Part shown: positions 30,555 through 37,605 of the stretch, in pieces | Numbering within the stretch: the first letter of the stretch is position 1 | Layout of the letters: each line of letters begins with the position of its first letter | Origin: a virus | Lineage: Duplodnaviria; Heunggongvirae; Uroviricota; Caudoviricetes | Reading direction: 5' to 3' (one strand) | Virus record (IMG/VR): IMGVR_UViG_2718217795_000004 | Length of the DNA stretch: 47,262 bases | Position numbers and translations under genes: made by a program | The notes under the pieces: model-generated | Told to the model about the DNA's origin: nothing | The model's database searches: none | The model's input: the letters and a program-made list of their open reading frames with translations, nothing else

Positions 30555-30890
30555 ATGAAGTGGATTGTGATTGATACAGTTATCCAGCCATCATGCGGAA
30601 TATCTTTTTCAGTCATATGGAGTAAAGTAAAATTAATAATCTGGTATCAATCGGATGCTTTCTTACCTCCTGAAAGTATATTTACACTGACTCACACAGG
30701 TATCATGCTCAATAACAAAGTGCTACCTGTAACCATTTACAACGTAGTACCATTCAATAAAACATTCTGGAATTTAATCAAAAACAGCCAGGAATGCCCT
30801 ACAAATACAGATAACGTATTGAATGAATGCTTTAATAACCGTTGCATTCTGCAAATATGTCCTTATGGACTAAAACAACAAAGTCCATAA
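30555..30890 (+). CDS. hypothetical protein (111 aa), AT-rich moron
   Basis: ATG with AAGGAA SD; AT-rich; followed by an 11-bp perfect inverted repeat and a GC hairpin. Confidence 0.45.
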
Positions 30891-31804: not shown

Positions 31805-31878
31805 CGCGCTGTACTGGATTCGAACCAGTGACCGATTGCTTAGAAGGCAATTGCTCTGTCCGGCTGAGCTAACAACGC
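31805..31878 (-). tRNA. tRNA-Arg (anticodon UCU)
   Basis: Hand-folded cloverleaf: acceptor GCGTTGT/ACAGCGC, D-stem GCTC/GAGC, anticodon stem ATTGC/GCAAT with loop CTTCTAA, T-arm ACTGG-TTCGAAT-CCAGT; no encoded CCA. Confidence 0.8.
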
Positions 31879-31889
31879 TGAATACCGAT

Positions 31890-31969
31890 AATGGACCGCC
31901 ATCGGGGACCCGCCCCCGCACCAACAACCCTGTTATCGTGTCGTCTGCTCTTCCTGATAAGCTAATGGC
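31890..31969 (-). other. degenerate tRNA-like element (argN-position pseudo-tRNA?)
   Basis: Perfect 7-bp acceptor pairing (CCGCCAT/ATGGCGG) with 3' TCCA and a D-arm-like stem, but anticodon and T arms do not fold canonically. Confidence 0.35.
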
Positions 31970-31978
31970 GGTTTGTGA

Positions 31979-32054
31979 TGGTGGCCCTTGCTGGATTTGA
32001 ACCAGCGACCTGGCGATTATGAGTCGCTCGCTCTCACCACTGAGCTAAAGGGCC
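31979..32054 (-). tRNA. tRNA-Ile2 (anticodon CAU, ileX/ileZ-like)
   Basis: Cloverleaf with acceptor GGCCCTT/AAGGGCC, anticodon loop CTCATAA, T-arm GCTGG-TTCAAAT-CCAGC, encoded CCA; closely resembles E. coli ileX from recall rather than a Met tRNA. Confidence 0.8.
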
Positions 32055-35190: not shown

Positions 35191-35346
35191 TTACTCCTCA
35201 GGTTCGTAAACTGTGAAGACAGCGACCTCCGTCTGGCCGGTTCGGATTCGTACCTCGCAGAGGTCTTTCCTCGTTACCAGTGCCGTCACTATGACGGTTA
35301 AACAGATGACGATCAGGGCGATTAACATCGCCTTTTGCTGCTTCAT
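35191..35346 (-). CDS. hok: Hok-family type I toxin (HokD/RelF-like)
   Basis: 51 aa MKQQKAMLIALIVICLTVIVTALVTRKDLCEVRIRTGQTEVAVFTVYEPEE, hallmark Hok sequence; AAGGAG SD; 3' stem-loop GGCGAGGGA-GAAAT-CCCTCGCC. Confidence 0.85.
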   Translation of the reverse strand: MKQQKAMLIALIVICLTVIVTALVTRKDLCEVRIRTGQTEVAVFTVYEPEE

Positions 35347-35603
35347 AGCCTGCTTCTCCTTGACCTTTCGGTCCGTAAGAGGCTAATCTCTATGTGTCGC
35401 ATAGATATGGCCTCAGATTAATGTTAAACGTCTTGCAGGACGCGTAATGTTACCTGGGGCTTTTCTCTATCTGCCGTTGGTGTTCATGCCCGAGGCAGAT
35501 AGCCTCAAGCACCCGCAGTCATTCTACTTAACTAAGATTTCCCCGCAAACCGTTTTTGTCCAGCACAATAAATATCCAACTAAACCAATGGAGTTCGCTG
35601 TAT

Positions 35604-35783
35604 TTACCGCCAGTATTCAATGCACATGACCGCCATGAACACCCCTAAAAAAAGGGCATTTATATATCCAAATATTAATATCAAAACATCAACTTTTTCC
35701 ATATACCTTGCTGTGAAGATGATGGGCATACATGATACGAACAACCAGAACGCAACAAACAAAAACTGCAATGCGTTTTTCAT
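35604..35783 (-). CDS. small two-TM membrane protein (59 aa)
   Basis: ATG at 35783 preceded by a strong SD (TAGGAGGAATA); two hydrophobic helices; AT-rich. Confidence 0.5.
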   Translation of the reverse strand: MKNALQFLFVAFWLFVSCMPIIFTARYMEKVDVLILIFGYINALFLGVFMAVMCIEYWR

Positions 35784-36069
35784 TATTCCTCCTACAATCA
35801 ATGCGCAATTACATTTAAACACACCTCAATTTGGCCGGACATATAAATATCTAAACTAGAAAAAATCACTTACATAGCGTTACAAACTCTTTAGTCTAAA
35901 GGTTCATCGTAAAACATTCCCCATACTTATCAGTCCGTTCCGTGCCAGGTAGCTTATTGCCTTATCTGGCAACCTATAATCAGGTTTCCGCTTTTTCAGT
36001 TGGCTGGTCGTTTAACCGACATAGTTAACCCATTAATCTAGTTGCCGGATGTTGGTGGATTTTCGCGTT

Positions 36070-36327
36070 TTAGTTGTTCATAAAAGTGCACAGCTTTAAC
36101 CAGTTCTTCTGATGTAACCGGGACTGGCGGGGCAGTGAATAAGGCCTGAATTTCATAGTTCGGACTGTCGTTACAATCCTCTTTTTTCGGTACATATTTC
36201 CAGTCACCAGACCACTACTTCCCCTGAAAGTCCGTAACGCCTTTTTTTTCACGTAGCGATATCGCCATGCCACTGTTTTTGCTTGCCCCGCCGTTTCATG
36301 CCCTTCCTGATAATTAACCTCGCTCAT
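36070..36327 (-). CDS. hypothetical basic protein (85 aa)
   Basis: Start ATG overlaps the upstream gene stop (ATGA); contains an A8 homopolymer run; coding status uncertain. Confidence 0.35.
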   Translation of the reverse strand: MSEVNYQEGHETAGQAKTVAWRYRYVKKKALRTFRGSSGLVTGNMYRKKRIVTTVRTMKFRPYSLPRQSRLHQKNWLKLCTFMNN

Positions 36328-36500
36328 TCATCGCCCCACTCATCACAATATGCTTCGACCGGAGTTTTTCCTGCTTCATAATCATCACGCCATGCTTCAG
36401 CATCAGCAGCACTGCCACCACGTAACTCTGCATAGTCCATTAACAGTTCATGCCATGCTTCAAAACTGACGTTGTATTTAGTTGAACCAAAATCAGCCAT
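36324..36500 (-). CDS. small acidic protein (58 aa)
   Basis: Not in the ORF track; MADFGSTKYNVSFEAWHELLMDYAELRGGSAADAEAWRDDYEAGKTPVEAYCDEWGDE; start overlaps the upstream stop (ATGGCTGA). Confidence 0.45.
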   Translation of the reverse strand: MADFGSTKYNVSFEAWHELLMDYAELRGGSAADAEAWRDDYEAGKTPVEAYCDEWGDE

Positions 36501-36675
36501 TTTGTTCTTCCTCTTCGTCTTTTATTTCGTGATATGAGTAATTGCAGTAGTTAAAGAAAATATCTTTTGCTTCGTCATGTATTTCATCAGGCGTCGCATC
36601 ATCATCCACTTCGAATTCATCCTCGAAATCTCCACCGGCTATTCCCGTTTCAATAATTATTTTAAACTTTCGCAT
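36493..36675 (-). CDS. small highly acidic protein (60 aa)
   Basis: About one third Asp/Glu (DFEDEFEVDDDATPDEIHDE...DEEEEQ); first gene of a translationally coupled trio. Confidence 0.5.
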   Translation of the reverse strand: MRKFKIIIETGIAGGDFEDEFEVDDDATPDEIHDEAKDIFFNYCNYSYHEIKDEEEEQNG

Positions 36676-36768
36676 TTCACTACCGCCCTTTCGGGCGGCC
36701 TCCTGATGTTCTGAGGGTGCAGAAATCCCTCCGGTTAAGGATTAAATTTTTAACAGAGCTAAGTTTAA

Positions 36769-37125
36769 TTATTCAGTTCTGGATTTTGTCGCCCTGCGTA
36801 TCCGCGCTTTCGCGTTACGCTCAATCTGAATTAGCTTTTCTATATTTTTTCGCCTTTCCCGCTCCTCCTGACGCAAGAGCCTTACATCATCTGCCAGTCT
36901 GGTTTCTCTTTTCGCCACAGAGAGCATCCAGTCAAATGGCTCCACAACTGCACCGCAGATTTTACAGCGGACCTGACGCTCTTTTTCGTCAACCCGGACA
37001 GAGGCGTGATGACAATATGGTCTTTCCGATGGCTCATAAAGAAAATTAACCTGATTACGAGGGTCATCCTCTTTTACCGGAAATAAAACGATATTGCTTA
37101 ACTCATCCTCTGGTTTTATTTCCAT
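36769..37125 (-). CDS. hypothetical protein with CHH/CxxC zinc-binding-like motif (118 aa)
   Basis: ATG at 37125 with SD AAGGAGAGGAG; motif PYCHHASVRV..RCKICGAVV; basic C-terminus. Confidence 0.5.
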   Translation of the reverse strand: MEIKPEDELSNIVLFPVKEDDPRNQVNFLYEPSERPYCHHASVRVDEKERQVRCKICGAVVEPFDWMLSVAKRETRLADDVRLLRQEERERRKNIEKLIQIERNAKARIRRATKSRTE

Positions 37126-37182
37126 GCTCCTCTCCTTTGATGCGAATGCCAGCGGTAATTGAAGCCTGATAGCTAATTTCAC

Positions 37183-37605
37183 TCACAGTACCGCCTCCTG
37201 AAAATTACCCTGATAGAAAGCCAGTACACGCTGCATAGCTTCACTCTTCCGGCACTCGCGACAGATTATGTTTAGGCGACTGTCGTAGCGACGTATTTCT
37301 CCGTCAGGTAACGACCAGATAAGGTCCGGATCAACCACAACCGGTTTCTTCAGCTTTGCCCTCGATAATTTTTTGCGGGCATTTTGCCAGTCTTTACGAG
37401 CCTGTTCAGACGGGAATAACCCGTAGCCAGAATTGTATACATCGCCACTGGCAACCAGCTCTCTGGCCAGAACGCTCATCAGATATCTTGTTGCCCCAGT
37501 TTTAGCTTCCAGTTGTCGTAACGTCTCGCGCCCACTCTGGCGTACGAGTTCAAGAACCTGTCCTTTAATTTTTTCCCGCTCTTCTTGTGTAAAAACTTTT
37601 GCCAC
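37183..37605 (-). CDS. hypothetical protein (140 aa)
   Basis: GTG start with AGGAGG SD; flanked by a 16-bp direct repeat (37204-37219 and 37610-37625). Confidence 0.5.
   Translation of the reverse strand: MAKVFTQEEREKIKGQVLELVRQSGRETLRQLEAKTGATRYLMSVLARELVASGDVYNSGYGLFPSEQARKDWQNARKKLSRAKLKKPVVVDPDLIWSLPDGEIRRYDSRLNIICRECRKSEAMQRVLAFYQGNFQEAVL

Follow-up and report, generated by a model that had tools for sequence, protein, structure and literature searches.

The locus examined here is a promoter-less accessory-gene cassette in the delayed-early rightward operon (window minus strand) of a Rac-type lambdoid prophage, the window being the whole 47,262-nucleotide stretch of DNA that was analysed. 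The cassette consists of two intact genes of separate families (hereafter ORF1 and ORF2) and one dead gene. Both intact genes belong to families that are already catalogued and common, and the outcome is mainly a clean annotation result, with two known hypothetical families and, next to them, a pseudogene that had been misread as a basic partner protein. Roughly every second complete E. coli genome has DNA matching the cassette, which is also found in Stx-converting phages and on a P1-like plasmid. Our best guess for the two small proteins is that they are made with the delayed-early operon and act as acidic binders or inhibitors.

The genomic setting is well defined. Over the 761 bases compared, the locus has 100% identity to the chromosome of E. 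coli CFSAN061763, in which the stretch at the window coordinates reads intR-xisR-ralR-recT-recE-kilR and then cro-ydaT-O-like-DUF977. After DUF977 come the cassette, hokD, DUF968-rusA-Q, lysis genes, trkG and structural genes. The prophage is similar to Rac and possibly defective. As originally proposed, the ORFs occupy a nin-type position between replication genes (O-like and DUF977) and DUF968-rusA-Q, and three minus-strand ORFs are present: ORF1 (36493-36675; 60 aa), ORF2 (36324-36500; 58 aa) and a third ORF (36070-36327; 85 aa). The start-on-stop junctions described for them are also found, with an 8-nt overlap between ORF1 and ORF2 (ATGGCTGA) and a 4-nt overlap between ORF2 and the third ORF (ATGA). 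Two of the three ORFs had been described as shorter than 60 aa; only ORF2 is strictly below that length, and ORF1 has exactly 60 residues. Overlaps occur in 14 of the 47 same-strand neighbour pairs in the window, which indicates that those of the trio are ordinary here.

The cassette resembles the lambda nin and P22 ea genes in its location between replication genes and Q, its tight packing, its overlapping stops and starts, its mosaic exchange between phages and its lack of a promoter of its own. On the coding strand from 35700 to 37300, we found no promoter-like or terminator-like site. By contrast, ORF1 and ORF2 are not homologous to the named nin and ea genes (NinB-H and Ea22), and their sole Pfam match is DUF7167. 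An Rfam scan matched the neighbouring sok/hok element only, and the ORFs in the unannotated gap at 35347-35903 have no PHROG match.

ORF1 is identical to RefSeq protein WP_001224662.1, which is named 'DUF7167 family protein'. It matches Pfam DUF7167 (PF23768) over all 60 of the 60 profile positions (55.1 bits, the cutoff being 24.4; E 7.9e-15) and PHROG 1997 over positions 1-57 of 57 (E 9e-31); in Pfam at E <= 1, the only other match is a sub-threshold one to AnkX_ins. The protein has the hallmarks of the family (MRKF-K-V-IET..GG...FEV-DDAT-EEI..EA..F.N.CNY) as well as its strong acidity, and no feature distinguishes it from other members. The DUF7167 family has no solved structure, and a full-text literature search for 'DUF7167' found no paper. 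The AlphaFold model of ORF1 (pLDDT 87.4) predicts a beta-hairpin and one helix.

ORF2 is identical to RefSeq protein WP_000753058.1 and belongs to PHROG 519 (E 2e-22). The match spans the whole length of ORF2 but only columns 76-137 of the 143 in the profile. The AlphaFold model (pLDDT 84.2) predicts a three-helix bundle. ORF2 has no Pfam family at E <= 1, and a Pfam scan of 34 divergent members of the ORF2 family revealed no family in common; NCBIfam gave no match for any of the three ORFs. A profile search among 1.84 billion proteins recovered 74 cluster representatives (E <= 1e-3) that have in common the core W16, L20, W37, Y41 and G44, i.e. the residues of ORF2 that are conserved in the family alignment. 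ORF2 shares its motif (FxxW..L...A..G.S.AD..AW..DY.AG.TP.EA) and its acidity with stand-alone proteins of ~50-65 aa from many phages. Its homologues occur mostly in virulent phages of 150-160 kb, e.g. Vi01 (a Salmonella phage) and Det7; another virulent phage with a homologue is Klebsiella phage 0507-KN2-1.

The third ORF had been read as a protein of 85 aa (pI 11). Our comparison shows that it is an out-of-frame reading of a pseudogene on the minus strand (35904..36327), whose start overlaps the stop of ORF2 and which derives from a 171-aa PHROG 660 gene. RefSeq annotates it as 'frameshifted; internal stop', in agreement with our DNA alignment to intact alleles. Relative to the intact 171-aa alleles, the gene carries at least five inactivating lesions: (i) an A8 homopolymer (36242..36249) that is A6 in intact alleles, a +2 slip that shifts the frame after codon 28; (ii) a TAG in the ancestral frame (36215..36217) where intact alleles have CCG or CAG; (iii) a 90-nt in-frame deletion, with its junction at 36054..36067 between two AATCC.CCAG direct repeats, which costs ~30 codons (VETGAWKD...GKADNPP); (iv) a second TAG in the ancestral frame (36038..36040) where intact alleles have CAG; and (v) a 4-nt deletion past this second TAG (~36006-36007). 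The ancestral stop TGA (35904-35906) marks the end of the pseudogene. The same poly-A run is the site of the frame change in other broken alleles of relatives, with products of 85 aa and 40 aa.

The profile matches follow the same pattern. The intact 171-aa form matches PHROG 660 at 4e-75 and the frame-corrected translation of the window's copy at 2e-23 over residues 2-93, whereas the literal 85-aa ORF aligns over residues 2-31 alone (E 0.0055) and is not an uninterrupted family member. Among the loci retrieved for this comparison, we counted 30 copies of the intact 171-aa form and 15 copies of a 119-aa form, both from E. coli prophages; FIG00640069 of mEp460 is another relative. The PHROG 660 family has no Pfam entry, and the intact 171-aa relative, which has no Pfam match, lacks the Ead_Ea22 domain (PF13935) and is not Ead/Ea22-like. 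By contrast, a genuine Ea22-like protein in the same slot matches Ead_Ea22 at 3.8e-26, and the two kinds of protein have only their first seven residues (MSEINYQ) in common.

These results bear directly on the idea of a three-gene module in which the basic ORF3 product would pair with the acidic proteins, e.g. as a neutralising partner. All three ORFs are linked by start-on-stop overlaps, their charges are opposite (pI 11 for ORF3 against ~4 for ORF1 and ORF2), and in copies of the E. coli type the three positions mostly occur together. However, the basic sequence arises only from the +2 slip in the poly-A run and has no family match past residue 31, the locus has the lesions listed above and is a pseudogene in RefSeq, and the intact third protein is not basic-rich and is replaced by Ea22-like genes in some phages. 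Sequence comparison thus effectively refutes a module with a basic ORF3.

The 'trio module' is not supported for this window for a further reason besides its dead third member, namely that it is only in the E. coli-type clade that ORF1-family and ORF2-family genes are found side by side. An ORF2-family gene is present in four of 38 diverse DUF7167 loci, all four of the E. coli type, and DUF7167 is present in none of the 10 inspected loci of distant ORF2 homologues. On these counts we rejected the idea that the two genes form a conserved pair beyond that clade; elsewhere each family occurs alone.

Within E. coli, the cassette is widespread. Its DNA has matches in 2556 of 5426 complete genomes, and the exact ORF1 and ORF2 sequences are each found on at least 1000 contigs. 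Carriers include the Ea22-rich accessory-gene region of phage vB_EcoS-689R5, the Stx-type phage ArgO145 and a P1-like plasmid. The presence of near-identical copies at the nin position, in the Ea22-rich region, in Stx phages and on a P1-like plasmid suggests that the cassette moves as a block.

Allele comparison shows ORF1 and ORF2 to be real genes under strong purifying selection. Their polymorphism falls mainly at third codon positions, and pN/pS is ~0.1 (0.104 among 27 alleles of ORF1 and 0.085 among 20 alleles of ORF2). We regard it as very improbable that the three ORFs are all functionless remains of a defective prophage. Such decay is seen in the third gene and in some genomes with frameshifted or nonsense ORF1 alleles, and the host element is Rac-like, Rac being often defective. 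Against this stand the low pN/pS of both genes, the conservation of both families across distant temperate and virulent phages, and an intact ORF1 in 75 of 79 IMG/VR loci, in many of which the third gene is broken.

We then considered the acidity of the two proteins, which had led to their designation as candidate DNA-mimic or anti-defence factors. The described composition is correct: ORF1 contains 33.3% Asp+Glu (net charge -15, pI 4.05) and eight aromatic residues, and ORF2 contains 25.9% Asp+Glu (net charge -11, pI 4.06) and nine aromatic residues. They are the two most acidic of the 57 annotated proteins in the window (median Asp+Glu 11.9%), and both have the acidity and low pI of the DNA-mimic class. 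The acidity also extends to their families, with a median net charge of -13 among 40 DUF7167 members and -10 among 34 ORF2-family members. Small acidic DNA-mimic inhibitors include T7 Ocr and gp5.9, lambda Gam, phi29 p56, ArdA and Acrs of the AcrIIA4 and AcrIF2 types. ORF1 and ORF2 are like these proteins in being small, in having a very low pI and in their presumed early expression, a likeness that we treat as a lead and not as a test.

The homology searches did not extend this likeness. At E <= 1, neither protein matches a Pfam family of the Ocr, ArdA or Acr kind. When both families were compared with PDB sequences by profile search, the best matches had E values of 0.58, 0.24 and 0.093 and were unrelated proteins in each case; the matches to uL23 and AnkX were weak and partial. 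Structure searches found no fold neighbour among solved anti-defence proteins, with low power for folds of ~60 residues; the best Foldseek match of the ORF2 model in the PDB has an E of 4.6, again with low power at ~60 residues, and a BFVD search returned uncharacterised phage proteins only. Such negative homology tests have little power for fast-evolving proteins of 60 residues, and acidity is conserved in both families; an anti-defence or DNA-mimic role is therefore still one of the possibilities, which these results neither support nor refute.

In its specific form, this reading holds that a carboxylate-rich surface of ORF1 and/or ORF2 imitates the DNA backbone and blocks restriction-modification, BREX, CRISPR or similar DNA-binding defences, which we consider improbable. 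The extreme acidity kept across both families and the early-operon accessory position of both genes are consistent with it, and known mimics can be as small as this (T7 gp5.9 has 52 aa and phi29 p56 has 56 aa). On the other hand, neither a Pfam match to Ocr, ArdA or Acr, nor a PDB sequence relative, nor a solved anti-defence fold neighbour was found, and the invariant or nearly invariant W, L, W, Y and G of ORF2 would point to a turn and a hydrophobic core rather than to an array of charges. The base rate is also low, with DNA mimics accounting for 11 of 268 catalogued anti-defence proteins (EVADES preprint, 10.1101/2025.06.06.658234). Literature searches with DUF7167, the WP accessions and the PHROG identifiers returned a single flag in favour, i.e. 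that PHROG 519 members in Kuttervirus genomes are candidate Acrs, by the machine-learning predictor PaCRISPR only (PMC9409062). The literature on anti-defence genes of nin or accessory regions contained nothing about the ORF1 and ORF2 proteins. A broader version, in which ORF1 and/or ORF2 represent a new, structurally unrelated class of DNA mimic or of nuclease or defence inhibitor, also seems rather unlikely. Within it, DUF7167 could be, for example, a gp5.9- or Gam-like blocker of RecBCD or of a restriction/BREX-type complex. If such a class exists, it would travel on a mobile cassette carried by lambdoid, Stx and P1-like phages.

The gene neighbourhoods of DUF7167 bear on a narrower proposal, namely that ORF1 blocks a host nuclease acting on DNA ends, such as RecBCD, and so protects phage DNA ends and recombination intermediates. 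T7 gp5.9, lambda Gam and P22 Abc offer an analogy, and in T7 gene 5.9 lies directly before the gene 6 exonuclease. DUF7167 adjoins nuclease or recombination genes in several distant phages: (i) in Klebsiella Guernseyvirinae, DUF7167 overlaps the start of a 454-aa exonuclease gene by 11 nt, and a gp2.5-like SSB gene comes after the exonuclease gene; (ii) in Enterococcus phage MDA2, a 180-aa exonuclease gene overlaps DUF7167 by 13 nt; (iii) in prophage-like contigs, the order is arf, erf (or an AAA_24 protein), ssb, an unnamed gene, dam, DUF7167 and hot; and (iv) in locus L224, the gene of a 355-aa protein (SbcD-like by eye) overlaps DUF7167 by 4 nt. However, the association of DUF7167 with exonucleases, suggestive in three or four lineages, failed across 30 non-redundant viral contexts, in which neither a nuclease family nor any other family is dominant among the neighbours (DUF551 in four, Ead_Ea22 in three, Metallophos in one and DNA_pol_A_exo1 in one). 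Moreover, in the window ORF1 lies ~5 kb from recE/recT, in the opposite arm of the prophage, and it has no sequence or fold likeness to solved proteins, RecBCD inhibitors with deposited structures included. Nuclease inhibition by ORF1 is thus quite improbable in our estimate. The single Metallophos match among the scanned DUF7167 neighbours is probably the 355-aa SbcD-like protein.

Other neighbours invite a different explanation, in which ORF1 and ORF2, rather than inhibiting the host, modulate DNA replication, recombination or regulatory proteins of the phage itself as small acidic adaptors or chaperone-like subunits. In many phages, genes of DNA metabolism lie next to members of both families. 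ORF2 homologues follow the P2 gpA replication protein in one setting and a DUF927 primase-type protein, Dam and an Rv2179c-like exonuclease in another; DUF7167 occurs near DNA polymerase A, an SNF2 helicase, a primase and the polymerase III theta homologue HOT; and in the window two other genes separate the cassette from the replication gene, which lies ~1 kb upstream of it. By contrast, no partner gene is conserved. In addition, the cassette passes between phages whose replication modules are unrelated to one another (lambdoid O-like, Stx-phage P-type and P1-like), which argues against a module-specific partner. This explanation appears unlikely.

The explanation that accounts best for the evidence overall, and to which we give about an even chance, is a promoter-less cassette of acidic genes encoding independent stoichiometric binders that serve host takeover or counter-defence. 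Read-through from the early promoter would supply the transcript of the cassette, and translation of ORF2 would start by re-initiation or coupling where it overlaps ORF1 by 8 nt. Each acidic protein seems too small to be an enzyme and would probably act stoichiometrically in lytic growth; the AlphaFold models of both proteins are confident, single compact folds without enzyme-like relatives. The proteins may bind a basic, possibly nucleic-acid-binding, surface on a protein of the host or of a rival element, and such binding may serve to take over the host or to counter its defences. ORF1 and ORF2 would act independently, not as parts of a three-part machine. Against this independence, ~66 of 74 IMG/VR loci have a PHROG 660-type third gene, so that some functional linkage among the three genes is conceivable. 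This mechanistic part is drawn only from size, charge, conservation and genomic position. If either protein is a counter-defence factor or a host-takeover inhibitor, a very common factor would be added to the arms race between E. coli and its phages, and DUF7167 and PHROG 519 would gain a function.

The proposed mode of expression is consistent with signals in the cassette. ORF1 and ORF2 combine a stop/start overlap with a Shine-Dalgarno (SD) motif in the upstream gene (GAGGA, 9 nt before the ATG of ORF2), as in a translationally coupled operon; the coupling itself is predicted. Upstream of ORF1, an SD-like AGGAGG hexamer (36699..36704, minus strand) lies 23 nt from the ATG, directly 5' of a hairpin (CCGCCC-GAAA-GGGCGG; 36683..36698, minus strand) with a GNRA loop. 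The MFE and centroid folds both contain this hairpin. It is thus located between the hexamer and the start of ORF1 and leaves 7 nt to the ATG. We suggest that the hexamer, hairpin and ATG possibly form a 'split SD' arrangement. In T4 genes 38 and 25, such a hairpin brings a distant SD near the AUG. The ORF1 leader is similar in its order of AGGAGG, 16-nt GNRA hairpin, 7 nt and ATG, which is kept with the gene at mosaic junctions. It differs from the T4 cases in that the hairpin is predicted from sequence and its covariation is not significant, the observed score being reached by 252 of 500 shuffles. The hairpin loop in relatives is GAAA or GGCA, and AGGAG is invariant in 13 distinct upstream variants. 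In two Stx-phage contexts (L005 and L100), the conserved cassette sequence begins at CAGGAGG and the hairpin.

The three overlapping ORFs lie on the minus strand at 36493–36675 (ORF1, 60 aa), 36324–36500 (ORF2, 58 aa) and 36070–36327 (third ORF as read, 85 aa). The ORF1/ORF2 junction is ATGGCTGA, with the ATG of ORF2 8 nt within ORF1, and ORF2 overlaps the third ORF by 4 nt at ATGA. These overlaps match the layout given in the original prediction, but such junctions are ordinary here, occurring in 14 of the window's 47 pairs of adjacent same-strand genes. The acidic, aromatic-bearing composition attributed to the first two products is also correct: Asp + Glu amounts to 33.3% in ORF1 (net charge −15, pI 4.05, 8 aromatic residues) and 25.9% in ORF2 (net charge −11, pI 4.06, 9 aromatic residues), and the two rank as the most acidic among the window's 57 annotated proteins (median Asp + Glu 11.9%).

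Sequence comparisons show the first two ORFs to be genuine genes that are conserved. ORF1 matches Pfam DUF7167 (PF23768; 55.1 bits, cutoff 24.4) and PHROG 1997 (9e-31); ORF2 matches PHROG 519 (2e-22) and no Pfam family. They are identical to RefSeq WP_001224662.1 and WP_000753058.1, respectively. Each exact sequence occurs in at least 1000 contigs, named solely as 'prophage protein', 'hypothetical' or 'DUF7167', and 2556 of 5426 complete E. coli genomes contain a DNA match to the locus. Polymorphism is mainly at third positions, with pN/pS of 0.104 for ORF1 (27 distinct alleles) and 0.085 for ORF2 (20 distinct alleles). ORF1 is intact in 75/79 IMG/VR loci; the integrity of ORF2 in these loci is by construction because they were selected through it. 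Both genes are already annotated, in catalogued families without assigned function.

The third small protein of the original prediction is not a gene product but a pseudogene, annotated as such: RefSeq describes 36327–35904 as 'hypothetical protein; frameshifted; internal stop'. In related phages the slot holds an intact gene, of 119 aa in vB_EcoS-689R5 and most often of 171 aa among the IMG/VR relatives; the longer form matches PHROG 660 (4e-75) and no family in a Pfam scan. Alignment to an intact allele reveals five minus-strand lesions: expansion of a poly-A run from A6 to A8 (36249–36242), TAG in place of CCG or CAG (36217–36215), loss of 90 nt between a pair of AATCC.CCAG repeats (junction around 36062/36061), another TAG (36040–36038) and loss of 4 nt (around 36007/36006). 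The ancestral stop codon is still present (35906–35904). Only residues 2–31 of the literal 85-aa ORF match PHROG 660 (E 0.0055), whereas residues 2–93 of the frame-corrected translation do so (2e-23). Beyond codon 28, the 85-aa, pI-11 'protein' is just the translation of the wrong frame. Other Rac-type copies carry this same broken allele. The 171-aa form is uninterrupted in 30/76 IMG/VR loci, and at least 15 further copies among the loci retrieved carry the intact 119-aa form.

The poly-A run is a recurrent slippage site: among related loci (L009–L088), broken alleles with 85-aa and 40-aa products change frame there, with intact alleles beside them, and one 36-aa allele stops in frame just downstream. 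The third gene opens with seven codons (36307–36327, minus strand; MSEINYQ or MSEVNYQ) that it shares with the genes of otherwise unrelated Ead/Ea22-like proteins of 185–270 aa, which take its place in other phages of this set. This shared start looks like a conserved recombination junction. In one IMG/VR locus the slot is filled by a homologue of the 118-aa protein encoded upstream of ORF1, and one phage record has a 252-nt plus-strand CDS, 'hornerin', ∼130 bp upstream of its third-gene copy.

A 761-base query spanning the locus matches the E. coli CFSAN061763 chromosome with 100% identity. At the window coordinates of that chromosome (a span of 47,262 bp), the RefSeq annotation reads as a fairly complete Rac-type lambdoid prophage. 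One arm contains intR, xisR, rcbA, ralR, recT, recE and kilR; the other contains cro, ydaT, an O-like replication gene, DUF977, the 118-aa zinc-ribbon protein, the trio, hokD/sok, DUF968, rusA, Q, tRNAs, lysis genes, trkG, and head and tail genes. This order, with O-like and DUF977 genes before the trio and DUF968–rusA–Q after it, bears out the nin-like position first proposed, which falls in a stretch absent from K-12 Rac. No promoter-like or terminator-like sites were found on the coding strand at 35700–37300, so the trio genes would lie within the long early rightward transcript.

The 118-aa protein (36769–37125, minus strand; PHROG 1621, 1.8e-56) has a weak sub-threshold Zn_Ribbon_TF match (E 1.6e-4), and its C-terminal tail is basic and rich in Lys/Arg; its 357-nt gene lies just before the cassette (trio plus upstream hairpin) here and in several other phages (L005, L007 and L100). 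The type I toxin–antitoxin locus hokD/sok (35191–35514, minus strand; 51-aa toxin; sok match to Rfam RF01794, 100.8 bits, E 5e-23) lies ∼560 bp downstream of the pseudogene. The unannotated AT-rich gap between them (35347–35903, GC 35–38%) contains a hydrophobic 72-aa ORF (35604–35822, minus strand) and a plus-strand 79-aa ORF, neither with a PHROG match. The prophage also carries an IraM gene (30555–30890), and tRNA-Arg and tRNA-Ile (31805–32054) downstream of Q.

Near-identical cassettes occur in an Ea22-rich accessory-gene region of vB_EcoS-689R5, in Stx-type phages (e.g. ArgO145) and in a P1-like plasmid, adjoining hot, humD and phd-doc; their common sequence starts at CAGGAGG and the hairpin, just upstream of ORF1. 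The three genes do travel together, by recent transfer. The copies share >90% DNA identity and are therefore not independent evidence for a module. Among divergent members the ORF1 and ORF2 families separate: of 38 diverse DUF7167 loci, just 4, all E. coli-type, contain an ORF2-family gene, and the 10 loci examined around distant ORF2 homologues all lack DUF7167. Such homologues occur downstream of an Rv2179c-like exonuclease and Dam in one context and of P2 gpA in another. Distant DUF7167 genes stand after erf (or an AAA_24 protein), ssb and dam, and before hot, excisionase and integrase, in that order. Another distant ORF2-family member (P0165; 2501–2677 of L102; L102/L103 are JGI metagenome contigs) is followed, 63 nt downstream, by genes for tandem SocA_Panacea-domain proteins; as Panacea is an antitoxin domain, this setting, found once, is unusual for a small acidic protein.

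Exonuclease neighbours of DUF7167 were examined further because the T7 gp5.9 and lambda Gam genes adjoin exonuclease genes. In unrelated virulent phages (Klebsiella Guernseyvirinae, L106/L108, and Enterococcus phage MDA2, L107; both 2501–2671), DUF7167 overlaps the start or end of an exonuclease gene by 11–13 nt, which recalls T7 gene 5.9 ahead of gene 6. A Pfam scan of 76 DUF7167 neighbours in 30 non-redundant viral contexts found no dominant family (DUF551, 4; Ead_Ea22, 3; single matches including Metallophos and DNA_pol_A_exo1). The pattern does not extend across this census, and the association is anecdotal.

Both families are widespread. DUF7167 relatives occur in prophages of Klebsiella, Citrobacter, Yersinia and Pseudomonas and in virulent Klebsiella and Enterococcus phages. 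A search of 1.84 billion proteins with the ORF2 profile retrieved 74 cluster representatives, most of which by far are stand-alone and 50–65 aa long; they share W16, L20, W37, Y41, G44 and an AD..AW..DY.AG.TP motif. Of 198 cultured-phage records matching ORF2, 178 do so at <60% identity, and those listed are mostly 150–160 kb Salmonella and Klebsiella phages (Vi01, Det7, 0507-KN2-1). Acidity is a trait of both families (median net charge −13 for DUF7167 and −10 for the ORF2 family). In one 72-aa E. coli ORF2 variant (P0001), the most conserved part is duplicated internally in tandem, so that a 14-residue segment (DDYEAGKTPVEAYC) is present twice.

AlphaFold2 models built with family alignments confidently predict small folds, a three-helix bundle for ORF2 (pLDDT 84.2) and a beta-hairpin followed by one helix for ORF1 (pLDDT 87.4, C-terminal tail less confident). 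The suggested searches for DNA-mimic or anti-defence relatives were negative. Foldseek gave a best E of 4.6 for ORF2 against the PDB; for ORF1 against BFVD, its matches were all similarly sized, uncharacterised phage proteins (best E 1.2e-3, phAPEC8). Neither family had a match in profile searches of the full set of PDB chain sequences, which may or may not include Ocr, ArdA, Gam, p56 or Acr entries. DNA mimicry, which the acidity would fit, is thus improbable given these results and a low base rate, mimics being 11 of 268 catalogued anti-defence proteins (preprint 10.1101/2025.06.06.658234). Its sole published hint is a machine-learning prediction of PHROG 519 members in Kuttervirus genomes as Acr candidates (PMC9409062).

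Taken as anatomy, the finding is ordinary: the locus very probably encodes two independent, conserved, very acidic mini-proteins with overlapping stop and start codons in a delayed-early operon. Both appear too small for enzymes and might bind stoichiometrically, during lytic growth, to a basic surface on a protein of the host or of a rival element; we propose such a binder or inhibitor mechanism tentatively. Their remaining appeal is that they are very common, strongly selected, uncharacterised and cheap to test.

Upstream of ORF1, an AGGAGG lies directly 5' of a GNRA hairpin of 6–7 bp (CCGCCC-GAAA-GGGCGG; together 36683–36704, minus strand) that ends 7 nt before the ATG, resembling the split Shine–Dalgarno arrangement of T4 genes 38 and 25. 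Covariation in the hairpin is not significant (252/500 shuffles). The loop in relatives is GAAA or GGCA, and the element accompanies ORF1 at mosaic junctions.
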